A stretch of 32,198 bases of DNA, from positions 62,001 through 94,198 of the forward strand of contig JABIHA010000062.1 of NCBI GenBank assembly GCA_018649885.1, given 5' to 3'. This DNA comes from Bacteriovoracaceae bacterium (GTDB lineage: Bacteria > Bdellovibrionota > Bacteriovoracia > Bacteriovoracales > Bacteriovoracaceae). The position numbers and the translations under genes were made by a program. Numbering within the stretch: position 1 is the stretch's first letter; the number at the start of each line of letters is the position of its first letter. This document shows, in pieces, positions 12,022 through 30,239 of this stretch. Below the pieces are notes generated by a model. It did no database searches. It saw nothing but the letters and a program-made list of their open reading frames with translations, and was not told the origin of the DNA.

Positions 12022-12465
12022 TTAAATTATATTTATTTTTCTATCTCTAGCGAGCTTGTTGATAATTTGCATGACTTTGTTCTGAGCTCTTTTACAGTCG
12101 CGTGACTCATTATTTATAGGTGTGAGCATGGTAGTGTAGGCATTCTCAGCATATGATCTTGCAGGAATCGAAAGAATTCTTCTTTGGAGCCCAGGATCCA
12201 TTCCTTTTAAGGCCACTCCAAGTATTGTGGGTGATACATATCTTAGGAGTTGCTTGATATCATCATCAGATATGCGAGCAATACATTCGAAGTTGATGCT
12301 TTCTTCAGATAGCTCCATTGCAAGTGTGGGATTTCTAAGTCTTATGGATTTTAATAATTTGGCTTTTTCAGCATCAGGTAAGAATTTTAAAAGCTCAACA
12401 ACTTGTGCCCTGCCATTAATATAATAACCTTCTTTTTTTTGCTCTGTCTTGATTTCGCTTTCCAT
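12022..12465 (-). CDS. Stand-alone FliG C-terminal domain protein
   Basis: NG...VVELL, NPTLAMEL...INFECI..ISDDDIKQLLR.V....LGVALKG, AQNKVMQII resemble FliG_C; FliG N and M domains are absent. RBS GGAG. Confidence 0.7.
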   Translation of the reverse strand: MESEIKTEQKKEGYYINGRAQVVELLKFLPDAEKAKLLKSIRLRNPTLAMELSEESINFECIARISDDDIKQLLRYVSPTILGVALKGMDPGLQRRILSIPARSYAENAYTTMLTPINNESRDCKRAQNKVMQIINKLARDRKINII

Positions 12466-14158: not shown

Positions 14159-15457
14159 ATGGAAGGAATTGACTTTTCCAAAGAAGATATCAAAGACTTC
14201 AAGAACTGGTTGAATCTAAACTGGGAGGGAGTTACTTGGTATGGAAAATTTGAAGGAGAGTTCAATACTTTTTGGGATGCAACTTTTGCTGCTGATATCA
14301 AGTTAAATGAAATAGTTCGAAGAATTGATTATATAAAATCTCTTATAAAATCGGGGCCACTGACAGCTTGGTTTGATTGGTTGAAGCACAAATGTGTTTG
14401 CTACACCTTTATTTTTAAATCTATTTCGATTTTAGATTTATCTAGGTTTTCGGGAATCGATGAAGATGAAATTGGGCTTCTTTTAAGAGATGCTTTTGTC
14501 GATATTTTGCCTCAACACGAAGATTATCTTAACGAGAAATTTCATATTGGGACAATAATATCAGAAAATATTTATCTCAATATGGATGAAATTAAAGAGG
14601 ATCTAAATTTAGGGGACTATTTTAGAGGAAGTTCATCTGATGAAATAATGGTTTCCCTCGAGGTAACTCTCTATGAAGAGTGGAATAAAATTATTCGTCA
14701 TATAGAAAATGAATTCAGAGAAGATTCTCCCGATTTAAAGAAATATAAAAGAAAGCTCAATGCCAGAAAACAGTTTCGAGTTGTTCAAGACTTTGTCATT
14801 TTGTCGATTATTGGAGTCCTACTAATTTCAGGTGTAAAATTCATCAATAAATATTATGAAAAACACCTTTCAGATAAAATTAGTATTTTTGAACCCGATT
14901 TTTTATGGCTTGATAAAACTTTAACCTTCAAAGAAAGGACAGAGTTGGCATCTGAATCCACCGAAGATATTAAAAAACTTGAAGATATCGAAAATGCGGA
15001 AAGTTTAGGATTTGGGGATGCACCTATAGAAGAAGAACGTTACGAGACTGAATCAGAAGTTTCGGTAACTTCATGGGATGAACTACCAAGAGATTTAGAG
15101 GCTTCTGGTTTTGAGCAATCAGAATACGAGGAAGTAAAAAAAGGCGGCATTAGAGATTCTAGCTATGGAAACAGAAAAGTTTACAGAGTCATGGTTAAGT
15201 CAATTGATCCAGATGCTGCTACGGTTAAGTTGAAAAACTTACTTGAAGAATATCATGTAGGGCAAGTAGACAATGTTAAGCCAGGTACAAATGTTCCCGG
15301 CGGAGTTTATTACAATTTATATGTGCCTATTGAAAATATGCGAGAATTTTTAGCTGAAGTAGAATATGTAGATGATTCCATGGTGTTTGAGAGTCGAACC
15401 AGATGGAGGAACCCTCCAGGGAAAAACCGTGTATTTATTTGGCTAAAGAAAATCTAA
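14159..15457 (+). CDS. Hypothetical bitopic membrane protein
   Basis: 432-aa ORF starting 1 nt after the thiolase stop, with one central TM (FVILSIIGVLLISGV) and an acidic C-terminal half. Confidence 0.75.
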   Translation: MEGIDFSKEDIKDFKNWLNLNWEGVTWYGKFEGEFNTFWDATFAADIKLNEIVRRIDYIKSLIKSGPLTAWFDWLKHKCVCYTFIFKSISILDLSRFSGIDEDEIGLLLRDAFVDILPQHEDYLNEKFHIGTIISENIYLNMDEIKEDLNLGDYFRGSSSDEIMVSLEVTLYEEWNKIIRHIENEFREDSPDLKKYKRKLNARKQFRVVQDFVILSIIGVLLISGVKFINKYYEKHLSDKISIFEPDFLWLDKTLTFKERTELASESTEDIKKLEDIENAESLGFGDAPIEEERYETESEVSVTSWDELPRDLEASGFEQSEYEEVKKGGIRDSSYGNRKVYRVMVKSIDPDAATVKLKNLLEEYHVGQVDNVKPGTNVPGGVYYNLYVPIENMREFLAEVEYVDDSMVFESRTRWRNPPGKNRVFIWLKKI

Positions 15458-15483
15458 ATTGGTCTTTGTGGGAGAAAACAGTA

Positions 15484-15900
15484 GTGTCAATTAAAGGAAT
15501 AAATCACATTACACTCAGTACTAACAATATTGAGAAGTCATTCAACTTTTATAAAGACGTACTTGGCTTCAAGCCACTTGTTCGGTGGGATCGCGGAGCC
15601 TATTTCACCACCGGCGAGACCTGGTTTTGCCTTTCACTTAATAAAATTCCACGAGACATGGACCACGAGGACTATCGACATATTGCTTTTAGCGTTGATC
15701 AAGACCAATTTGAAAACATGAAAAAAATCCTACAAGCAGAGGGCGTCGAAGAGTGGTCACTAAATACGAGTGAGGGGGACTCATTCTACTTCCTAGATCC
15801 TGACGGTCACCACTTAGAAATTCATGTCGGCACATGGGAGTCCCGTCTCAAAAAACTAAAAGAAATATCTTGGGAAGGAAATATAGAATTCTTCGAATAA
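15484..15900 (+). CDS. FosA-like VOC-family metallo-glutathione transferase
   Basis: GINHITL, FYKDVLGF...RWDRGAY...WFCLS, DYRHIAF, NTSEGDSFYFLDPDGHHLEIHVG...SRL closely follow FosA. In-frame GTG at 15484 after GGAG (15471-15474) is more plausible than ATG 15403. Confidence 0.8.
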   Translation: MSIKGINHITLSTNNIEKSFNFYKDVLGFKPLVRWDRGAYFTTGETWFCLSLNKIPRDMDHEDYRHIAFSVDQDQFENMKKILQAEGVEEWSLNTSEGDSFYFLDPDGHHLEIHVGTWESRLKKLKEISWEGNIEFFE

Positions 15901-17923: not shown

Positions 17924-18472
17924 TTACATTGAATTGTCTGGAATTTCAAAAAGGGCCTTGAGCTCCCTTAGAAGTTTATGAGTTCTACCGAGGTGAATCC
18001 ACTGTCTGTAAAAACCAATTGTCATGGCAAGAACGAATCCGTAAACCACACCAACATGGATTTTTTTGGCAACCATTCCTGTGTCGTGAGCACCTCCAAG
18101 AAAAAAGGCAATCATTCCAAGAGTCAGCATCATCATAGTCCAAGGGATAGTTTTTCTTTTGGATAAAGTAGAGGACTGAACATATCTTTCAACTTTCTTT
18201 TTGTAGGGATCTAAGTCAGCGGGAGGATTGTCAAAAAGCTCATCCATATCTCCAGCTCCACTTAGTGTTGAGTGGATATTATCCACAAGCCTAGAAGTGC
18301 CAATAAAATAAAACATGATAAAGGCCTGGCAAAATATCACATATAAAAATGAAGGAATGGCGATTTGAATGTGACCAAAGGAAAATGGAGAGTGGCCCAT
18401 GGCCGTAAGGGTTGTTAGTAGTATTGCGAAAACCATTAAAATATCCAAAAATCTCAGTAAGTAAGCCATCAT
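17924..18472 (-). CDS. Hypothetical four-TM membrane protein with His residues near the helices
   Basis: Four hydrophobic segments, FYFIGT motif, His in MGH/FGH and GAHD/KIHV; RBS GAGGA; divergent from the respiratory locus. Confidence 0.75.
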   Translation of the reverse strand: MMAYLLRFLDILMVFAILLTTLTAMGHSPFSFGHIQIAIPSFLYVIFCQAFIMFYFIGTSRLVDNIHSTLSGAGDMDELFDNPPADLDPYKKKVERYVQSSTLSKRKTIPWTMMMLTLGMIAFFLGGAHDTGMVAKKIHVGVVYGFVLAMTIGFYRQWIHLGRTHKLLRELKALFEIPDNSM

Positions 18473-18530
18473 TTTCCTCTTGTTGAGATTCTTTCTACTT
18501 AAAAAAGAGTAATTTCGGCAAGGTTGTATA

Positions 18531-18551
18531 TGTCATGACAACTTCTTGTCA
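18531..18551. promoter_or_regulatory. Overlapping palindromes, candidate operator
   Basis: TGTCATGACA (18531-18540) and TGACAA-CTTC-TTGTCA (18536-18551) in the divergent intergenic region. Confidence 0.45.
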
Positions 18552-18602
18552 GATTATTTTGGCCCATGCTAAAGCTAGTTTGATCGAAATTATCGCAAAT
18601 TA

Positions 18603-19496
18603 ATGAGAGCTAATATGTCGAATAGTGCATCCAAAGGCAGTCCTAAGAAAAAATTATTAGAAAAATCAGCAATGGCCCCTATCATGATGCCTGTCGCAAT
18701 TGTCCTTTTGGGCTCGCTTCTGGTTTTTGGAATCGTTAAAATGCTTAGCACCGAAAGATCTCACCGCGATTTGATTAGAGAAATGGAATCAAAAACCTTT
18801 GGGAATCGCTGGGTGGCAGCATTTGAATTGTCTAAATTATTGGCCCGCAAGTCCATTCCTGAAAAAGAAAATCAGTGGGTTATTGAACGCCTTTCAAAAC
18901 TCTACGATAGATCTAATGACGCAAGAACGAAAAACTTTTTGATATTGGCGCTATCTACATTTAAAACACAAGATATTCTCCCTGTTTTATACAAGGGCCT
19001 AAAAGACTCCGACTCACAGGTTCAATTCAATGCAGTTATTGGAATTGGAAATATGAAAGTGGGCACTGTTTATGATTGGGTTCCACTTATGGAGCTGATG
19101 AAAGCTGAAGATCAAGGCCTTAAGCAAGTTTTGATGTACACATTTTCTAAACATTCAGTACCAGGTGCGGACCTTCTTATGGAAGCCGATTTAAAATCTT
19201 CTATTCCTCTCACGAGATACGTAGCAGCAATATCACTAATCTCTTATGGAAATAAAAAGTTGGGGCCCGTTTTGAAAGAGATCCTAGACCTTGCCATGGT
19301 GGACAAAGCAGCTCCTGGCCAGCTTCGTTCAGATAAAGTCATGGCACTAAAACTTAATGTGATTAATGGAGTCAGGAAATCTAATAGTAACCACTATAGT
19401 GCTTTGCTGCAAGACGCCTTACCTAAAGAAAGAAATCCTAAAATAGAGGTCAAACTAAAAGAAACTATTAGGCTTTTACTAAAAAATAACTCGTAG
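18603..19496 (+). CDS. Membrane-anchored HEAT-repeat (PBS-lyase-like) protein
   Basis: N-terminal TM followed by helical repeats (RWVAAFEL, LKDSDSQVQFNAVIGIG, RYVAAISL). Start may be 18615. Confidence 0.7.
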   Translation: MRANMSNSASKGSPKKKLLEKSAMAPIMMPVAIVLLGSLLVFGIVKMLSTERSHRDLIREMESKTFGNRWVAAFELSKLLARKSIPEKENQWVIERLSKLYDRSNDARTKNFLILALSTFKTQDILPVLYKGLKDSDSQVQFNAVIGIGNMKVGTVYDWVPLMELMKAEDQGLKQVLMYTFSKHSVPGADLLMEADLKSSIPLTRYVAAISLISYGNKKLGPVLKEILDLAMVDKAAPGQLRSDKVMALKLNVINGVRKSNSNHYSALLQDALPKERNPKIEVKLKETIRLLLKNNS

Positions 19497-19619
19497 CCAC
19501 CTTAATCAATATATAGTATTTTAATGAGATAAATCATCGCTTATTTTTTAGAGTTGTGTAGCTGACTCTTGGCTCAGCGGGCCTTGGTCTGAAGTATTTT
19601 TGAAATGGGGAAATAATCC

Positions 19620-20120
19620 ATGAGTGAAAGTAAGAAATCACTAAATAGAAGGGAATTCTTTAGCTTTTTAGCAGTTGGTTGGATTACCTTTACGGCGGCA
19701 ACTGCTGGCCTTTTAGGTTTAGTCTTTAGATTCTTGTATCCAAATGTAAATTTTGAACCAGAAATGGAATTTATTGCAGGTATCCCAGGCGACTATGATA
19801 ATGGCGTTGATGAGAGATGGAAAAATGGTTTTGGCGTTTGGATTATTAAACGTGAAGGAAAGCTAGTTGCTCTTTCTAATATCTGTACCCATCTCGGTTG
19901 TATTCCCAATTGGCTTCCAGGTGAATTAAAATTTAAGTGTCCATGCCACGGTTCTGGTTTCTACCCTTCAGGTATTAACTTCGAAGGCCCAGCTCCAAGA
20001 CCTCTTGAGAGATTTAAAATCACAACTCTTCCCGATGGAAGATTGAAAATCGATAAAACTAAAAAATATAGATATGAGAAAGGACAGTGGAATAACCCTG
20101 ATTCCTATATTGAGGTTTAA
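19620..20120 (+). CDS. Rieske 2Fe-2S subunit of a Rieske/cytochrome b complex (QcrA/PetC-like)
   Basis: Tat-type NRREFF plus TM, CTHLGC, CPCHGS, GPAPRPL. Confidence 0.95.
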
Positions 20121-20125
20121 TTAAA

Positions 20126-20908
20126 ATGTCTGATAAAAGTATTGTAGATCAAGTTAGAGAAACACAAGTTTGGAAATCAATTTTTCGTCATGGTCCACCA
20201 AACAATGCTCGTAATAGAGCAGCCATAGTTGCTGGAAACGTATTCCTTCACCTGCATCCCATTAAGTTAAAAAAATCTGGGGTTCAGCTTGGCTACACAT
20301 GGTGTATGGGCGGACTAACATTTTTTATCTTTTTGTCACTTACAGTTACCGGTGTTCTTTTAATGTTTTATTACAGACCCACGGCTGAATATGCCTTTAA
20401 CGATATTGTAGCCCTTAGAGAGCATGTCCCTCTAGGTATTATGCGAGAAATTCACAGGTGGGGTGCCCACGCCATGGTTATTACTGTCTGGCTTCACATG
20501 TTTAGGGTCTTCATGACTGGATCATATAAACCACCTAGAGAATTTAATTGGGGTGTTGGTGTAATCCTCTTAGTTTTAACATTACTTCTTTCATTTACTG
20601 GCTATCTTCTTCCTTGGGATCAGCTAGCGATTTGGGCCATTACAGTTGGATCCAATATGGCAAAGGCCACTCCATTTTTAGGTCATGGTGGTCCTGGAGC
20701 AACACTAGCTCAGATCGGGGATTTTATTCTCGTCTCTGATAAAAACGACGTGCGTTTTCAACTTTTAGGCGGTCGTTTTGTTGGTGAGCCAGCACTACTC
20801 AGGTTTTATATTCTTCACTGTGTTTTTATTCCACTTGTTGTGGGAGTGCTTATAGCGATTCACTTTTGGAGAGTTAGAAAAGATGGTGGTATTTCAGCAC
20901 CTCTTTAG
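20126..20908 (+). CDS. Cytochrome b6-type N-terminal subunit (QcrB/PetB-like)
   Basis: WCMGG (heme ci Cys60), HRWGAH...[25 protein letters not shown]...IH, and a b6-like C-terminus GISAPL. Confidence 0.95.
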
Positions 20909-20943
20909 GTTTAGGCAGAGATTAGGGATAATCAGGAAATAAT

Positions 20944-22026
20944 ATGGAAGCTTTGAAAGAATTTGTTAACATTTTATCGGGTCCACAATACTCATTTACT
21001 TTGACCTTGATTATGTTCTATTTGTTAATGAAATATTACAGAATTATTGGAACAAAGAAATTTGCGTGGGGATTTGTTATTCTTATGACCCCTGTCTATC
21101 TTTGGTTTATGAGTGATGATGTTTTTAGAACTATTATTGCCACACCTGATAATATTCCAATTTCAATACTCCTTTTCTCAGTCTTTTTCTTCACTTGGCT
21201 TACCGTTCACAAAGCGGCGATCAACGATGAAAGAATTGAAGCGGGTGAGTGCCCTATAGAGGGATTACCGGAAAATAGAGAAAAGGTCTGGAGTTGGCCA
21301 AATTTAGTTTACAACGAATTATTTGTTATTATTGCGGGAACAATTTTTTTAATTGTTTGGGCAATAATTTTCAAGGCCCCACTTGAGGAGCCTGCCAACC
21401 CAACATGGGCACCGAATCCGGCTAAAGCTCCTTGGTACTTCCTTGGTTTACAAGAAATGCTTGTTTATTTCGATCCTTGGATGGCCGGCGTTGTTCTTCC
21501 TGTCTTTATCATTATTGGTCTTGTGGCCATCCCTTATATTGATACAAATCCAAAAGGAAATGGATATTACACATTTTCTGAAAGAAAGATGGCGATTTCC
21601 TGCTTTATGTTTGGATGGCTAGTTCTTTGGATCTTTTTGATAATTATTGGCACCTTCTTAAGAGGACCCAACTGGACCTTCTATGGACCTTTCGAATACT
21701 GGGATTTCCACAAAGTTGTTGCCGAGGCAAATATTAATTTGTCAGAAATTATTTGGATCAAGATGCTCGGAACCACAATGCCTTCAAATCTTATTGTGAG
21801 AGAGATTTTTGGAATATTTGTAATACTCGCTTACTTTGGAATCAGCGGAGCTATGATTACCAAAAAGTGGGGACAAGATATATTAGAGAAGACTGGGAAG
21901 ATTAGATATTATTTCTTCTTATTCTTAGTTCTGTTCATGGCAACACTTCCAATTAAAATGTATTTGAGATGGTTATTTACTCTGAAATACATTGTGGCCC
22001 TGCCAGAGTGGGAACTAAATCTTTAA
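20944..22026 (+). CDS. Extended subunit IV (cytochrome b C-terminal domain; QcrC/PetD-like)
   Basis: WPNL...ELF, APLEEPANP..PNPAKAPWYFL (PEWY-equivalent loop), AIPYID; extra TM helices at both ends. Confidence 0.85.
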   Translation: MEALKEFVNILSGPQYSFTLTLIMFYLLMKYYRIIGTKKFAWGFVILMTPVYLWFMSDDVFRTIIATPDNIPISILLFSVFFFTWLTVHKAAINDERIEAGECPIEGLPENREKVWSWPNLVYNELFVIIAGTIFLIVWAIIFKAPLEEPANPTWAPNPAKAPWYFLGLQEMLVYFDPWMAGVVLPVFIIIGLVAIPYIDTNPKGNGYYTFSERKMAISCFMFGWLVLWIFLIIIGTFLRGPNWTFYGPFEYWDFHKVVAEANINLSEIIWIKMLGTTMPSNLIVREIFGIFVILAYFGISGAMITKKWGQDILEKTGKIRYYFFLFLVLFMATLPIKMYLRWLFTLKYIVALPEWELNL

Positions 22027-22060
22027 TATAAAAGGAATTAAAAAAATAAGGATATATTGA

Positions 22061-24916
22061 ATGAAACTTGAACCAGGCATGGCATTTGATACGAAAGTAC
22101 AAAATAAAGTCTTTGCTTTTCTATCTATTCTACTTCTGCTTTCAACTGTTTGGGTTATCTTAGATGATTATATTAGACCGTGGAAAGCTGTTCAAATTAA
22201 GGCCCTAGACATTAAAAAAGAAGTTCTAGGTGAAAAACTAAAAGCTGTTAAAGCAAGTGTAAAACCTGAAGAAGTTGCAGCTCTAAAAAAGGCCATTGAA
22301 GCTGGTCAGAAAATTAGAGATTCACGGCAAGCGGAAGTTGACGCTCTTAAGAAAGAATTGGGTGAAACTCAGGCAAAAATTTACGCTCAAAAAATTATCA
22401 ATGGTGCTGATGGTTCCAGCTCATCAGCTATGACTTTTCAGTGGGAAATGAAAAAAGAGCACGGAAAAGACGCTGCCGCTAAAAAACTTAAGGGCAAACT
22501 CGATGCATTGAATATTAAATGGGGCAAAGGCAAGGATTATTTTAAGCAACTTACAACTGACGAAAAAAATGTTCTCAATGCCATCGCAGCAAAAAGTAAA
22601 GAGCTGAAGCTTGCTCAGAAAGACTACAAAGAAAAAGCTGGTAAATTAGATATGACCCAAGAGGCTTATGATAGTGCTAGCTTCTTTTCAGATCCTATTA
22701 ACTTTTTAAGAAATGCTCCATTTATCGATTACCTTGATCCTACAATTAAAATTCAACAAGTAGTGGCCGAGAATATTACTGAAGATCGTTATTTCAAACA
22801 AACAGAGAAAGTCGACAGGTGTATGACCTGCCACACTTTTATCGATAAACCAGGTTATGAGAAAAAAGATAATCCCTATAAAACTCACCCTAATCTTAAC
22901 TTAATGGTGGGAGCTGATTCACCACACCCTATGAAAAAAACAGGGTGTACAACATGTCATGGTGGAGAAGGACAAAGGGTTTTTGATTTTAACGCAGCTG
23001 AGCACAGACCTGAAAATGAAAAGCAAAAACAAGAGTGGATTGCAAAATATCACTACCATGAAGGCCATAAAATCGCTCAACCAATCAGAAAGAAATCTCA
23101 GACAGAAGCAGGCTGTGTTAAGTGTCACCAAGGTAAAGAATTTATTCCACAAGCAGATAGATTGAATAAAGGCCGCCAATTAGTACAGACTTACGGCTGT
23201 TACGGTTGTCATAAAATTAAAGGCTGGGAACATCTTAGAAAGCCAGGACCAAGTCTTTATAAAATTTCAAGTAAGGTGTCTAAAGAGTGGACTAAAAACT
23301 GGGTATGGTTTCCAAGACACTTTAATCCAAAAACAAAAATGCCTCACTACTTTAATCAAAGTAATAATTCTAAGCCAGAATTTTTAAAGAAAAACGTAGC
23401 GGAAGTGAATTCTATTGTTGAGTACCTCTTTAAGAACTCTAAGTCCTTTTCTCCTTTTACCAGATACAATGGCGGAAATGCTGATAAAGGGAAGGCCTTA
23501 ATTCAAAACGTAGGCTGTATTAGTTGTCACCAAGTTGAAGGCATTGGAAATGATTTTAATAAAGTGGGATCAAAAAAAGGTCCATACCTAACGGGCTTGG
23601 GATCAAAGGTTTCAGGGGACTGGTTAGTTTCATGGTTAATGAGACCTTCTCACTATCAAGAGGATACTGTGATGCCATCTTTTCGATTATCGAAAAGAGA
23701 AGCAAGTGACATGACCTCTTACCTTCTAACTCTCAAAAATAAAAAATTCTCTGAGATGAAATTTTCAGATCTAGATAGATCAGTTCGTGATGAGCTTCTT
23801 TTAGAGTACTTCAGCTCTTTCGATACAATCGCAGTGGCCAAGACAAAACTAGCAGGCCTCGATGACCACCAAAGAACACTAGAGCTCGGAAAGAGATCCA
23901 TTGGTAAATTTGGCTGCTACTCATGTCACAATATTGATGGCTTTGAAGGAAGATCACCTATTGGAGTTGATCTAACGAATGAGGGATCTAAACCAGTTAC
24001 TCAACTGGCCTTTGGACACGAGCACATTGAGCATAAAAGAGATGTTTGGTTTAAAAATCACATGCTCAACCCCAGAAGATGGGATAGAGGAAATAACAAA
24101 GGTTTTAAAGATCTCTTGAGGATGCCTAACTTTTTTATGTCAGAAGAGGATGCTGATTTACTTACAGTCTTCTTACTTGGACAAAATAGTGAAAAAGTTC
24201 CCATGGCAGGTCAGAAGAATTTAAATGAATATGAGGTTGCTGAGGAAAAAGGCCACCGTGTGATGAGCAAATATAATTGCTACGGTTGTCACAATATTGA
24301 TGGCATGGGCGGAGATATTTTAAAAGCAACTGCTTACGCTGATGATCCAAATGAGGCTCCACCGATTTTGGCAGGGCAAGGTCATAGAGTGCATACTGAT
24401 TGGTTCTATAATTTCCTAGGTAATGTTCACACTATTAGACCTTGGCTAAAAGTTAGAATGCCGACTTTTAATCTCTCAAATGAAGAAAAAAACACAATTG
24501 TCGATGGTTTTAGAGCAAGAAAGAAGCTTCCTGTTTTTGAAGAAAAACCTGAAAAAGTAGTTTGGGAGCCTGGTGAGAGAGCCGCTGCCAAAAAATTAAT
24601 TACTGAGTATGCTTGTGATAGTTGCCACACACTTGGGTTTAATAAAGATGAGCCCATGGCACCTAATCTTCATCATGCCAAGAATCGTTTGAGAGCTTCA
24701 TGGATTGAGAAATGGTTAAAAGACCCTCAATCAGTGATGCCTGGAACTACAATGCCTAACTTCTTCGCTGATGGAGAGGCCCAAGAGCCATCTATCCTTG
24801 GCGGAAGCGTAGATAGACAAGTAACAGCATTAAGAAAATATATACAAGAAATTGGTGAGAAAGAGTTTCCCGAAGCTGGCTGGTATGAAGCCACGGGTTT
24901 CAAAAAGCCAGAATAG
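22061..24916 (+). CDS. Membrane-anchored octaheme cytochrome c
   Basis: N-terminal TM, long coiled coil, eight CxxCH motifs: CMTCH, CTTCH, CVKCH, CYGCH, CISCH, CYSCH, CYGCH, CDSCH. Confidence 0.92.
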   Translation: MKLEPGMAFDTKVQNKVFAFLSILLLLSTVWVILDDYIRPWKAVQIKALDIKKEVLGEKLKAVKASVKPEEVAALKKAIEAGQKIRDSRQAEVDALKKELGETQAKIYAQKIINGADGSSSSAMTFQWEMKKEHGKDAAAKKLKGKLDALNIKWGKGKDYFKQLTTDEKNVLNAIAAKSKELKLAQKDYKEKAGKLDMTQEAYDSASFFSDPINFLRNAPFIDYLDPTIKIQQVVAENITEDRYFKQTEKVDRCMTCHTFIDKPGYEKKDNPYKTHPNLNLMVGADSPHPMKKTGCTTCHGGEGQRVFDFNAAEHRPENEKQKQEWIAKYHYHEGHKIAQPIRKKSQTEAGCVKCHQGKEFIPQADRLNKGRQLVQTYGCYGCHKIKGWEHLRKPGPSLYKISSKVSKEWTKNWVWFPRHFNPKTKMPHYFNQSNNSKPEFLKKNVAEVNSIVEYLFKNSKSFSPFTRYNGGNADKGKALIQNVGCISCHQVEGIGNDFNKVGSKKGPYLTGLGSKVSGDWLVSWLMRPSHYQEDTVMPSFRLSKREASDMTSYLLTLKNKKFSEMKFSDLDRSVRDELLLEYFSSFDTIAVAKTKLAGLDDHQRTLELGKRSIGKFGCYSCHNIDGFEGRSPIGVDLTNEGSKPVTQLAFGHEHIEHKRDVWFKNHMLNPRRWDRGNNKGFKDLLRMPNFFMSEEDADLLTVFLLGQNSEKVPMAGQKNLNEYEVAEEKGHRVMSKYNCYGCHNIDGMGGDILKATAYADDPNEAPPILAGQGHRVHTDWFYNFLGNVHTIRPWLKVRMPTFNLSNEEKNTIVDGFRARKKLPVFEEKPEKVVWEPGERAAAKKLITEYACDSCHTLGFNKDEPMAPNLHHAKNRLRASWIEKWLKDPQSVMPGTTMPNFFADGEAQEPSILGGSVDRQVTALRKYIQEIGEKEFPEAGWYEATGFKKPE

Positions 24917-24940
24917 AAATGACCATTAAGGAGTGAATAT

Positions 24941-25567
24941 ATGAGCGCCCACGCCCATGCAGATGATCCAGATTATGCACTAGTAGAACCAAATGATGAA
25001 TTATTTGGAAGTGCCACCCCAGGTAAGATTGCCATGTGGATCTTTCTCATTACGGATGCCATGTCCTTTTCTGGATTTCTCATTGCCTACGCGATTTTGC
25101 GTGCCACTAAAAGTTGGCCAAGCCCAGCTGAGCACCTTGGAATTGGTCTTTCAGGTTTTGCCACTTTCATTCTTATTTGTAGCTCCGTCTCTATGGTTTT
25201 AAGTATTGATGGTTGCAAGAGAAAGGACAGATCCTCCATGCTCAATTGGCTGGGTCTTACAATATTGGGTGGAGTGATCTTTCTCGGTATCCAGGCTTAC
25301 GAATACGCCCACCTTGTTCACGGTGGACTAACGCTTGTTAACTTCTCTGAGGGCACAAATTTATTTGCCTCAACCTTTTATATGATTACTGGCTTCCATG
25401 GTCTTCACGTTCTAACAGGGGTTATCTATTTAACAACTATTTTCGTTCAGGCCTATAATGGAAAGTACGATAATGGTGAATACAACAACCTTGAAATCGT
25501 TGGACTGTTTTGGCACTTTGTCGATTTAGTCTGGATCTTGGTCTTTACCTTTATCTATCTGTTGTAG
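24941..25567 (+). CDS. Heme-copper oxidase subunit III-like protein (short five-TM form)
   Basis: GKIAMWIFLITD, LICSS, FLGIQAYEY, TGFHGLHV, GLFWHFVDLVW; RBS AAGGAG. Confidence 0.92.
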   Translation: MSAHAHADDPDYALVEPNDELFGSATPGKIAMWIFLITDAMSFSGFLIAYAILRATKSWPSPAEHLGIGLSGFATFILICSSVSMVLSIDGCKRKDRSSMLNWLGLTILGGVIFLGIQAYEYAHLVHGGLTLVNFSEGTNLFASTFYMITGFHGLHVLTGVIYLTTIFVQAYNGKYDNGEYNNLEIVGLFWHFVDLVWILVFTFIYLL

Positions 25568-25780
25568 ATGAAAATCCTTAGCCTAATTCTTGGTGCATTT
25601 TGGATCAATTTTGCCATGGCCTGCCCGTACTGTGCAGGCTCTAACCCAGATGCCAGAGACAAGTACACCGTTTTTATCCTATTGATCTTTATCGTGGCCT
25701 GCTATGTACCGCTTGCTATGCTTTTCAACCTCATGAGAAAAAACCGCGCTCTCAATAATATAGAAAAAAATGACAATTAA
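25568..25780 (+). CDS. Small membrane protein with signal peptide and CPYC motif
   Basis: Abuts the upstream stop and overlaps the downstream start; signal peptide ending AMA, then CPYC, then one TM. Confidence 0.7.
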   Translation: MKILSLILGAFWINFAMACPYCAGSNPDARDKYTVFILLIFIVACYVPLAMLFNLMRKNRALNNIEKNDN

Positions 25781-26192
25781 CGACTTACCCTGCCTTAATG
25801 CTGGCCTCAATTCACTGTCATTCATTCTTCTTTTGGCAGGCTATTGTGCCATAAGAAAAAATCAAAAATCACTCCATATAAAGTTGATGCTCTCGGCAAC
25901 CGCAGTGTCTGCAGCTTTTCTAACAAGCTATCTAATCTATCACGCACATGCCGGCTCAAAAGCTTTCCCAGACCTTGGGTGGATCAAAACTATTTATCTC
26001 ATCATTCTAGTGCCACACATAATCCTCGCGGCCGTCATGGTCCCCATGATACTAGTAACCTTCTACCACGCCTTCAAACAAAACCATGATAGTCATAAAA
26101 AATGGGCAAAACTAACTTTGCCCATCTGGTTATTCGTCTCCATAACCGGAGTCATCATCTATCTAATGCTCTACGTTTTTTTTACTCAGTAA
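25770..26192 (+). CDS. DUF420 (YozB/CtaM-like) membrane protein
   Basis: LPCLNAGLN, H..LM..A...SAAFL.SYL.YH, HIILA, HKKWAK.T.PIWL.VS.TGV..Y; this family typically accompanies oxidase operons. Confidence 0.9.
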   Translation: MTINDLPCLNAGLNSLSFILLLAGYCAIRKNQKSLHIKLMLSATAVSAAFLTSYLIYHAHAGSKAFPDLGWIKTIYLIILVPHIILAAVMVPMILVTFYHAFKQNHDSHKKWAKLTLPIWLFVSITGVIIYLMLYVFFTQ

Positions 26193-28022: not shown

Positions 28023-30239
28023 ATGCAACACATCCTTAGATTATCTTTGATAATTTCCGTTTTATTCATTTCGACATTGGCCCATTCGGCAAAAAGAGTC
28101 ACCATTATGACTTACAATGTTCAAAACCTATTCGACGCCATTAATGATCCGGCCAAAAATGATGAAAGTTATCTTCCACTATCAGTTAAAAACCAAATTG
28201 AAGGACACGTTGATAATTGCATCAAAATACTGGGAAGTGAGCTCCCCGAAAATCCTGCTGAACTTCAAAAAGAAATCAAAAGAAGAAAAGGACATCCCTG
28301 GGTAAGAGAGTGCCTTGCGATGGATTGGAATGATGAAGTAATTGAGAAAAAGCTAAAGCGTCTAGCTGCTGTTATTCGATCTGTGAACGATGGAGCTGGA
28401 CCGGATATCTTATTTTTGCAAGAAATTGAAAACAAAGAAGTGGTTGAAAGGCTTCGTCTGAATCATCTAAGTGATTTGGGATATCAAGAAACTCTTCATC
28501 AAGAAGGCGATGATGCCAGAGGAATTGATATCGCTATTTTAACTAAGCTTAAAATCAGGGGGGGTGTAGAGCTTGAAAAAACTGACTTCAGCGAATCAAA
28601 CCCTGAAAAGATAGCCGATACTAGAGAAATAACTGGGGCACAAGTGCAACTTCCAAACGGAGATACAGTTAATCTCTTTGGCGTTCACATGCCTGGGCAG
28701 CATCTAGAAAATCCAGAAATGCGAGTAGAGCAAATAGAGCATTTGGCCAAATTGCAAAGAACAGGACGCTACAATAGGAATCCAAGTATTGCCGCTGGGG
28801 ACTTTAATATTTCAGCGCCCGAAGATAAAAAGAGCCAATTGTATGAGATGATCGGTAAGAATTGGGGCGTCTCACACCTTATGGGCTGTGACGACTGCGA
28901 AGGGACTTATTACTGGAGAGGCGAAAATCAGTGGTCCATGTTTGATGCAATCCTAGTGACCCAAAATCTTAAAAAATATGTCGACACAGATTCAATTAAA
29001 ATAATTAAGGGCCTTCCCAACCAAACCTGGTCTTCAAATGGAGGACCTAGAAAATTTAATCCATATAATTTCTCTGGAACCTCTGATCATTTTCCACTTG
29101 TAATGGACCTCGTTTTCCCTGAAGCGGATGACCTTGAAGCTCAAATCAATAGAAGAAAATGGATTGGAAGAAGGGATAAAGTTAAAGGGAAAAAAGTAAA
29201 AGTGGCTTTTTATGATGCAGATAGCACCCTTAGAGTTACTAAAAGTGGCAAATTTAGTAATGACTATGCTGAAGATGTTATACTCCTACCCCTTGTAGCG
29301 CAGGCCTTAAAGAAAGCACAGGATGAGGGTTATGTCATAGCTGTAATTTCAAACCAAGCCTCTGTGCCTGAAAGAAAGACTTATGAAGCTGCCAATGGAG
29401 GAATTGTAACAGTTATAGAACTCCTTAGAGCTCGAGGAGTAAGTGTTGATTACTACGATTTTGCAGAACATAAAGACCATGACAGAAAGCCAAACCCTGG
29501 AATGGGAGAGAGGCTTGGCAGTGAACTAAAGAGAATGTTTAATGGAGCCACAATTGATAAAGAAAACTCTTTTATGGTTGGAGATGCCACCTATAAAAAA
29601 GCAGAGATAGGTGGGTACAGACCTGACCCCAATGACCCATCAAAAAAGATTTTAATTACTAAAAAAGACACCTCATTTTCAAACTCTGACAGATTATTTG
29701 CCGCAAATTTTGGAATTGAATTCAAAATTCCTGCAGACTATTTTGGATGGAGAAAATATGGTGTTCACAAAATTGAACGCAAGTACCAAGCCTTTGATCT
29801 TTACAGGAAATTGATGGAGCCTCATATTCTTGACGATCTCAGTGCTTCTGTTGAACTGGAAGTGGGAGATAGTGGCGGAGATGGTCATGACAAGACTGAT
29901 TCAATAATTATTCGAACTAATTTCAACAAAGTTGCACTTAAGAGTGCTTACTATGTTGGAACTGCAGTAGCTGAATTTGATCTGATTGGAGATTTTGCTG
30001 AAGAATTTGAAGATAATTTGCTTCCCAAAAAACACTATGAGAAGTTAGTTGAGCTTGGCTACGACAAGGATCTTGAATTTGGCGATAGCGATGATGAAGA
30101 AAACCTAGAAATTTCCATAGAGGATTATTTCAATATTTACTTATTCATGATTAAGCTAGGAAATCCAAAATTCTCGTACGAAATTATTTCCGCAGACTCA
30201 TATCTAGATTTAGGTGGATATGGACTCTTCTTCTTTTAA
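28023..30239 (+). CDS. Exported EEP (endonuclease/exonuclease/phosphatase) protein fused to a PNKP-type HAD 3'-phosphatase and an acidic C-terminal domain
   Basis: Signal peptide ending AHSA. EEP motifs TYNVQN, LQEIE, AGDFN, SDHFP. HAD motifs FYDADSTL..TKSG, ISNQ, RKPNPGM, FMVGDA, FSNSDRLFAAN. Confidence 0.85.
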   Translation: MQHILRLSLIISVLFISTLAHSAKRVTIMTYNVQNLFDAINDPAKNDESYLPLSVKNQIEGHVDNCIKILGSELPENPAELQKEIKRRKGHPWVRECLAMDWNDEVIEKKLKRLAAVIRSVNDGAGPDILFLQEIENKEVVERLRLNHLSDLGYQETLHQEGDDARGIDIAILTKLKIRGGVELEKTDFSESNPEKIADTREITGAQVQLPNGDTVNLFGVHMPGQHLENPEMRVEQIEHLAKLQRTGRYNRNPSIAAGDFNISAPEDKKSQLYEMIGKNWGVSHLMGCDDCEGTYYWRGENQWSMFDAILVTQNLKKYVDTDSIKIIKGLPNQTWSSNGGPRKFNPYNFSGTSDHFPLVMDLVFPEADDLEAQINRRKWIGRRDKVKGKKVKVAFYDADSTLRVTKSGKFSNDYAEDVILLPLVAQALKKAQDEGYVIAVISNQASVPERKTYEAANGGIVTVIELLRARGVSVDYYDFAEHKDHDRKPNPGMGERLGSELKRMFNGATIDKENSFMVGDATYKKAEIGGYRPDPNDPSKKILITKKDTSFSNSDRLFAANFGIEFKIPADYFGWRKYGVHKIERKYQAFDLYRKLMEPHILDDLSASVELEVGDSGGDGHDKTDSIIIRTNFNKVALKSAYYVGTAVAEFDLIGDFAEEFEDNLLPKKHYEKLVELGYDKDLEFGDSDDEENLEISIEDYFNIYLFMIKLGNPKFSYEIISADSYLDLGGYGLFFF

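Follow-up and report, generated by a model that had tools for sequence, protein, structure and literature searches.

The stretch of DNA analysed here (the window) comprises 32,198 nucleotides of a Bacteriovoracaceae genome (G000, 92% complete) and contains a gene cluster for a respiratory complex that combines a Rieske protein and a split cytochrome b with a cytochrome c carrying eight hemes. A sequence-only reading had described seven co-oriented genes separated by at most 35 nucleotides, namely genes for a Rieske protein, a split cytochrome b, an enlarged subunit IV, an octaheme cytochrome c, an oxidase subunit III, a mini-protein with a CPYC motif and a DUF420 protein. These seven open reading frames were indeed present on the plus strand, with gaps of 5, 35, 34, 24, 0 and -11 nucleotides, and the Pfam assignments agreed with the description, apart from the protein of 70 amino acids, which matched no family. 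The list was not complete, as an eighth conserved gene, encoding a HEAT-repeat protein, had been overlooked. All eight genes are compiled in Table 1. The same core was found in 80 related loci from several phyla (L016-L095), and, thus, the arrangement is not due to chance. A scan for promoters and terminators stayed at chance level (30 promoters versus 26.2, 6 terminators versus 8.1); a single hairpin was located inside the DUF420 gene.

Table 1. Conserved genes of the cluster (positions refer to the window; aa, amino acids)
Gene product	Position	Strand	Assignment
Membrane-anchored HEAT-repeat protein	18603..19496	+	Pfam HEAT_2
Rieske [2Fe-2S] protein with twin-arginine leader and S-F signature, probably of high potential	19620..20120	+	Pfam; best PDB match 9RK3, E 4e-43
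Four-helix cytochrome b6	20126..20908	+	Pfam cytochrome b N-terminal part, 260 aa; best PDB matches b6f cytochrome b6
Enlarged subunit IV (Qo motif APWY; invariant Glu125 close to the site of heme ci)	20944..22026	+	Pfam cytochrome b C-terminal part, 360 aa, at least six hydrophobic segments
Octaheme cytochrome c	22061..24916	+	Pfam cytochrome c; 951 aa, exactly 8 CXXCH, 16 Cys (none outside the motifs)
Cytochrome c oxidase subunit III, first of two paralogues (cox3a)	24941..25567	+	Pfam COX3
CxxC mini-protein, 70 aa, with signal-like segment, CxxC and one membrane helix	25568..25780	+	No Pfam family; Atlas clusters unnamed
DUF420/CtaM-like oxidase assembly protein	25770..26192	+	Pfam DUF420, E 2e-41

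The conservation of the core subunits was analysed by alignment of 82 homologues of cytochrome b6, 84 of subunit IV and 71 of the octaheme cytochrome. In cytochrome b6, the heme b ligands H110, H124, H231 and H246 were invariant in all 82 sequences, and the same was true for the CxGG motif, i.e., Cys60 with G62 and G63, and for H42, H44, H115, C232, R249 and R251. Position 252 was occupied by Lys in 78 sequences and by Arg in 4. His42 was also invariant in a separate set (14 of 14). The four helices, the separate subunit IV and the cysteine of the CxGG motif mark the protein as a b6f-like split cytochrome b with a predicted heme ci at Cys60. The APWY motif of subunit IV aligns to the PEWY motif of b6f subunit IV, and both APWY and E125 were found in 84 of 84 homologues. 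By analogy with the glutamate ligation modelled for Kuenenia, Glu125 might be the ligand of heme ci. Motif and Rieske signature fit the APWY clade, to which the complex is putatively assigned; the tree calculated here comprised APWY-type sequences only, with no outgroup from other clades.

The complex shares with the cytochrome b6f complex of cyanobacteria and chloroplasts the four-helix b6, the 14/15 spacing of the histidines, the heme ci cysteine and the separate subunit IV, but it has APWY instead of PEWY, a subunit IV of more than twice the length and an octaheme cytochrome instead of cytochrome f. The features of a standard proteobacterial bc1 complex, i.e., an unsplit cytochrome b, PEWY and a monoheme c1, were all missing. 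Thus, the view that a b6f-like Rieske/cytochrome b complex is present, with an octaheme cytochrome in place of cytochrome c1 or f, is supported.

A described relative is encoded by Kustd1480-1485 of the anammox bacterium Kuenenia stuttgartiensis (Hauser et al. 2025), for which the structure of the Rieske protein (PDB 9RK3), its midpoint potential of +335 mV and an AlphaFold3 model of the whole complex are reported (PMC12954380). The Kuenenia locus used for comparison (L122) encodes exactly the Rieske domain of 9RK3. The Rieske protein of the window was 52% identical to Kustd1480 over 116 amino acids, and its Ser112 and Phe114 correspond to Ser114 and Phe116, so that the S-F signature is shared. 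Cytochrome b6 was 60% identical to Kustd1481, and its H42, R251 and K252 are the counterparts of His62, Arg266 and Lys267 in Kuenenia; by this analogy, H42 is the proposed ligand of an extra heme at the dimer interface. Subunit IV represents a fusion of the Kuenenia 51-amino-acid gene and the Kuenenia subunit IV (44% and 51% identity, respectively), and APWY is present in both species. The octaheme cytochrome was 27% identical to Kustd1485 over 768 columns (E 3e-72), with the same length, a stalk in both and the same distribution of three plus five hemes. The Rieske protein, cytochrome b6, subunit IV and the octaheme cytochrome are thus orthologous in the two species. In contrast, a gene for an NAD(P) oxidoreductase is inserted in the Kuenenia locus and missing from the window cluster, which differs also by the gene fusion, the preceding HEAT gene, the aerobic host and the tie to an A-type oxidase operon.

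The Rieske signature was S-F or S-Y in all 92 scored loci, as in Rieske proteins of the Mid+ to high-potential class, and S-Y in 23 of 24 related loci. Together with the value of +335 mV for the Kuenenia orthologue, this does not agree with the typical low-potential complex that had been envisaged from the sequence.

The octaheme cytochrome starts with a membrane anchor and a coiled-coil stalk, followed by three bis-His hemes and by five repeated class-I domains with His/Met coordination, which are similar to one another. All eight motifs were present in each of the 66 full-length homologues from the 80 related loci. The sixth ligands H276, H289 and H315 as well as M427, M538, M688, M800 and M898 were conserved in 97-100% of the 71 aligned sequences. 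Because all eight hemes have conserved sixth ligands, the protein reads as an electron wire and not as an enzyme of the hydroxylamine oxidoreductase (HAO) or octaheme nitrite reductase (ONR) type. HAO, ONR and octaheme tetrathionate reductase have a compact fold with one catalytic, five-coordinate heme; they were considered and rejected in view of the three His and five Met ligands, the five class-I repeats and the lack of any match in a sequence search of the PDB. An alignment-based AlphaFold2 model of the octaheme cytochrome had a predicted local distance difference test (pLDDT) value of 85, versus only 35 for a single-sequence fold. With this model Foldseek found nothing at E <= 0.001, and the weak matches were class-I cytochromes. 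The matches of the wide VIA search were confined to coiled coils, and the heme domains were hardly probed by it.

The last three genes of the cluster were compared with the oxidase genes of 51 Bacteriovoracales genomes, of which 47 contain the bc cluster (carriers) and four do not (non-carriers). A subunit III gene was located directly 3' of the octaheme gene in 40 of the 47 carriers, and in 36 an A-type cox1 gene followed 6.1-20.9 kb downstream on the same strand. Where the two clusters part, subunit III stays with cox1 and not with the bc genes: it was found 2.5-3.4 kb upstream of cox1 in two non-carriers and in five carriers in which the bc cluster does not precede it, some of which may represent contig breaks. 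Orthologues of cox3a (69-71% identity) head the cox operon also in G044 and G034, apart from the bc genes or without them, and the CxxC gene is attached. In one genome (G041) the whole series is uninterrupted, in the order HEAT-Rieske-b6-IV-octaheme-cox3a-CxxC-DUF420-ctaAB-cox2-cox1-cox3b-diheme c-SCO-cox4.

The genome of the window encodes two A-type oxidases, on contigs C20 and C132, and a quinol-dependent nitric oxide reductase (qNOR). The C132 locus contains ctaB, cox2, cox1, one subunit III gene and genes for a diheme lipoprotein, SCO and cox4. The C20 locus contains cox2, cox1, two subunit III genes, cox4 and a CxxC gene of its own. The cox1 gene of C132 groups in one clade with the bc-linked cox1 genes (Shimodaira-Hasegawa-like approximate likelihood ratio test, SH-aLRT, 100; 9 rows), and homologues of the genes just after DUF420 in five related loci (L017, L018, L020, L033, L101) lie upstream of ctaB on C132. 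DUF420 is the domain contained in CtaM, which is needed for the assembly of active oxidase (PMC8239418). Synteny thus identifies cox3a, CxxC and DUF420 as the first three genes of an A-type oxidase operon, not of the bc core, which is broken after DUF420 in this genome. Because subunit III tracks cox1, the C132 cox1 groups with the linked genes, the genes before ctaB match those after DUF420 and DUF420 is the CtaM domain, the three tail genes are read as oxidase genes stranded by rearrangement. An assembly break as the cause was rejected, as unrelated genes occupy the 6 kb after DUF420 and ctaB is located 57.6 kb into C132. A pairing of cox3a with the C20 oxidase was rejected as well, since two subunit III genes and a CxxC gene already belong to that oxidase, which also branches elsewhere. 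The subunit III is therefore indeed a lone one within the window, but not within the system, and the oxidase that had been predicted to be encoded elsewhere is most likely the A-type oxidase of C132, where cox1 and cox2 were located. The ACxxC family is conserved in cox operons, including that of G044, which lacks bc genes, and the second operon on C20; the mini-protein probably handles copper or thiols during oxidase assembly.

The C132 oxidase has the features of type A1, i.e., the six metal-ligand histidines, the cross-linked Tyr, the Glu of helix VI, the Asp of the D-channel and the CuA motif in Cox2, which has no fused c domain. The role of the K-channel lysine in helix VIII is well established. 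In the C132 Cox1 it is missing, and Phe or Leu is found instead in all nine members of the clade. Both A-type Cox1 proteins of the genome (C132:59426-61153, equal to L012:7427-9154, and C20:4181-5848, L011) lack this lysine and have kept the metal ligands and D-channel residues, and it is missing also from eight linked Bacteriovoracales Cox1 proteins and six from other phyla. CoxO and CoxP of the CoxMNOP-type A1 oxidases form a subunit III doublet. As in these oxidases, two subunit III genes and a subunit IV gene belong to each oxidase of the genome, but here cox3a leads the operon, the K-channel lysine is lacking and a diheme lipoprotein is included (the coxMNOP name is taken from PMC5492768).

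The adjacent subunit III gene had been taken as a sign of a supercomplex, an argument that is lost when this gene follows cox1. An obligate supercomplex of complexes III and IV as in actinobacteria, in which the enlarged subunit IV, the cox3a product and the octaheme cytochrome dock the bc dimer onto the oxidase, would be compatible with forward electron flow. The neighbourhood of bc and oxidase genes in 36 of 47 carriers, the occurrence of cox1 in the retrieved flanking DNA of 10 among 58 loci from other phyla, the missing c domain of Cox2 and the membrane anchor of the octaheme cytochrome would fit such an arrangement. But in 40 of these 58 loci the flank contained neither an oxidase gene nor an assembly gene, Kuenenia, an anaerobe, likewise has the enlarged subunit IV and the octaheme cytochrome, and two carriers (G003, G043) have the complex while no A-type cox1 was found in them. 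Conversely, G044 has an intact oxidase operon with cox3a together with alternative complex III (ACIII) and has no bc genes. In addition, candidate small soluble monoheme cytochromes are encoded in the genome of the window and could be alternative carriers. From gene linkage, a physical association of bc complex and oxidase may be proposed, and an obligate supercomplex is regarded as possible but doubtful.

Taken together, the complex is probably the working complex III of Bacteriovoracales, a group of marine predators, and their main quinol-oxidising complex. It would be a b6f-like dimer of the APWY clade that acts as a quinol:cytochrome c oxidoreductase, runs in the forward direction and feeds the A-type oxidase. 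A quinol, most likely menaquinol, which is made by most relatives and perhaps scavenged from prey in this organism, would be oxidised at the APWY Qo site. One electron would pass to the Rieske protein, presumed to be of high potential like its orthologue, then to the membrane-near bis-His trio and on to the five His/Met domains; in this step the heme ligands are deduced from conservation and the order of the hemes is presumed. From there it would reach the diheme lipoprotein and CuA of the A-type oxidase, or else other cytochrome c-dependent reductases, either by direct transfer or with small soluble c-type cytochromes in between. The other electron would cross hemes bP, bN and the Glu-ligated ci and re-reduce quinone, which would constitute a Q-cycle.

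The opposite direction has been proposed for the APWY clade, namely that proton-motive force drives the reduction of menaquinone by high-potential cytochromes. Kao and Hunte (2014) link APWY with Mid+ to high-potential Rieske proteins and with such reverse operation (PMC4122944), and the Qo motif indeed lacks the usual glutamate. As presented there, the proposal refers to a single gene context and no measurement stands behind it. The distribution in the order argues for the forward direction. The cytochrome b6 of the window is the only cytochrome b in its genome, and a second cytochrome b gene was absent in 43 of the 47 carriers. In addition to the b6 type, three cytochrome b genes of full length were seen, on G027:C1, G030:C92 and G042:C2. 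Strong matches to ActD of ACIII were found in 3 of the 47 carriers, with weak ones in three more, versus 3 of the 4 non-carriers. In 37 of the 47 carriers a second cytochrome b and ActD matches of any strength were both lacking, so that by these queries the complex is the only candidate for complex III in them. A gene of the heme-copper oxidase superfamily was found in all 51 genomes. Because the complex is the sole candidate in 37 oxidase-bearing carriers and ACIII appears where the cluster is lost, forward flow is preferred over reverse flow, which is considered very unlikely.

Several observations weigh against a forward complex III with a Q-cycle. The genome of the window itself has a complete ACIII, the 51 genomes are kin and not independent, and the link of the APWY motif to reverse flow points the other way. 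No menA, menB, menC, menD or menF was found in this genome, which is 92% complete; the one men gene seen is menG-like, and ctaB is the sole member of the UbiA family. A Rieske protein near +300 mV combined with menaquinone breaks the usual symmetry about the quinone's potential (PMC12954380), and due to this asymmetry a plain Q-cycle would waste energy. Moreover, the invariant His42 has no role in a plain Q-cycle. The ACIII operon (L014, G000:C141:1-8736) is complete and lies directly 3' of genes for nitrate reductase gamma subunits, and a second NrfD/multiheme cluster was seen on C146.

The biosynthesis of the quinone, which had been suggested for checking, gave a divided picture. The classical menaquinone pathway is encoded in relatives (menD in 33 of 51 genomes), in contrast to the genome of the window. 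The futalosine pathway was found in none of the 51 genomes. Five of six UbiA-family loci from menD-negative genomes look like divergent men clusters (by eye, except L129), and menaquinone is a plausible substrate. Seven mostly near-complete genomes (G000, G001, G016, G026, G041, G042, G044) had one UbiA-family gene, apparently for heme O synthase, and no match to menD or MqnA. Some predators may scavenge quinones from prey.

Three oddities were observed, i.e., the combination of a high-potential Rieske protein with menaquinone, an extra-heme site that is kept without the NAD(P) acceptor of Kuenenia and an oxidase without the K-channel lysine. A rival reading is an O2-driven bifurcation, in which menaquinol would be oxidised by the high-potential Rieske protein and the second electron, at very low potential, would exit via the dimer-interface heme at His42 to a soluble ferredoxin or flavodoxin. 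This would resemble the proposal for Kuenenia, without a dedicated reductase subunit, and may be a side branch beside the Q-cycle. In Kustd1481 the proposed extra heme is held by the counterparts of His42, Arg251 and Lys252; as mentioned, the first two of these are invariant, and position 252 is almost always Lys. The Rieske signature throughout, the men clusters of the relatives and three small ferredoxin-like open reading frames in the genome of the window would also fit. On the other hand, the extra heme itself is an AlphaFold3 prediction alone, and it is not very obvious why a heterotrophic predator should need uphill reductant. A homologue of the Kuenenia NAD(P) oxidoreductase was found in none of the 50 relatives and in no other related locus. 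The single match in the genome of the window is unlinked, on C60, and looks like an NfnAB-type pair without the C-terminal Fe-S domain (by eye). Bifurcation is thus unlikely, and the same low expectation is attached to its extended form, a bifurcating complex III in which the octaheme would conduct the high-potential electron to an oxidase that has two subunit III paralogues and lacks the K-channel lysine. The C60 genes (G000:C60:23281-26057) form a two-gene NfnAB-like pair, in which the large subunit seemingly ends in a rubrerythrin-like domain (by eye); the 50 relatives had no such match.

The forward-running complex III favoured here is a variant of a described type that is not known to have been purified, and its architecture is already in print. 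The genome paper on Nitrospina gracilis from 2013 mentions a b6f-like complex III operon with an "atypical octaheme cytochrome c" and the same operon structure in Kuenenia and Methylomirabilis (PMC3578206). An Fe-S subunit, a split cytochrome b and an adjacent octaheme cytochrome are common to the two, but Nitrospina is a nitrite oxidiser with a cbb3 oxidase, and the comparison is one by description with a genomic remark. Split cytochromes b with heme ci have been described in mixed taxa (PMC5600118, PMC3509893). The APWY clade of Kao and Hunte shares the Qo motif, the Mid+ to high-potential Rieske protein and the scattered taxonomy; their paper calls the clade uncharacterised and proposes reverse flow, whereas the distribution found here argues for forward flow. 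Its main text mentions neither Bacteriovorax nor Bdellovibrio, and the searchable supplement file does not mention Bacteriovorax either (PMC4122944). Literature searches directed at the complex gave no paper on it in Bacteriovoracales and no purified intact complex of this type. The earlier label "uncharacterised" goes too far, in view of the partly studied Kuenenia orthologue (PMC12954380) and of the similar operon described in 2013 (PMC3578206).

The closest named homologues of the octaheme cytochrome and subunit IV belong to Bacteriovoracaceae and Halobacteriovoraceae, including named Bacteriovorax and Halobacteriovorax strains. The family reaches Acidobacteriota, Planctomycetota, Marinimicrobia and Omnitrophota. 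Subunit IV matches were found in 24 of 61 genomes of the phylum of the window, and octaheme matches in 29 of 151 genomes of the phylum of a Planctomycetota member. APWY-type complexes occur widely among uncultured Acidobacteriota, Planctomycetota and marine phyla; a reverse direction was proposed for them, and in energetic terms they seem anomalous. With Bacteriovoracales, an aerobic system that lacks the reductase is available for the study of the direction, the predicted extra heme, the symmetry rule of quinone and Rieske potentials and an oxidase without the K-channel lysine.

The HEAT gene was present in 62 of the 67 related loci with at least 2.6 kb of upstream DNA (the other 13 of the 80 loci had less and were left out), and in 58 of the 62 it was less than 3 kb away from subunit IV. 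No HEAT gene was found in the Kuenenia locus. The protein has one N-terminal helix, and the charge bias in 50 of 55 sequences corresponds to an N-in/C-out topology, so the repeat domain is probably periplasmic. Judged from its gene neighbourhood, it probably serves as an accessory subunit or as an assembly factor. A complex prediction with the HEAT protein, residues 8-365 of the octaheme cytochrome and the Rieske protein scored 0.00, with the controls not folded, and weighs neither for nor against binding. Fusions of HEAT and octaheme proteins were sought and none was seen. Upstream of the HEAT gene, a divergent gene (window 17924-18472, minus strand) encodes a protein of 182 amino acids without a known family, and almost all of the Bacteriovoracales loci examined have it at this place. 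The relatives have sigma-70-like elements in common ahead of the HEAT gene, which are weakly kept in the window (18460-18620, by eye). The same applies to a -10-like motif just 3' of the HEAT stop codon (window 19480-19625, by eye), which suggests a second promoter ahead of the Rieske gene.

Further observations concern other parts of the window and of the genomes. The window also encodes a FosA-like glutathione transferase (15403-15900, plus strand; NF000496, 169 bits, under the cut-off of 180), a stand-alone protein with the C-terminal domain of FliG (12022-12465, minus strand) and an exo/endonuclease-phosphatase domain fused with a polynucleotide kinase 3'-phosphatase HAD domain (28023-30239, plus strand). 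A COX3 gene with 12 in-frame TGA codons (G031:C34:1250-2017) likely indicates a mitochondrial contig in that bin. Large multiheme cytochrome clusters, which are unexpected for a predator, were found at G000:C16:15782-22579 and C40:43037-52158 (30, 24, 14 and 11 CXXCH motifs) and are possibly a conduit for extracellular electron transfer.

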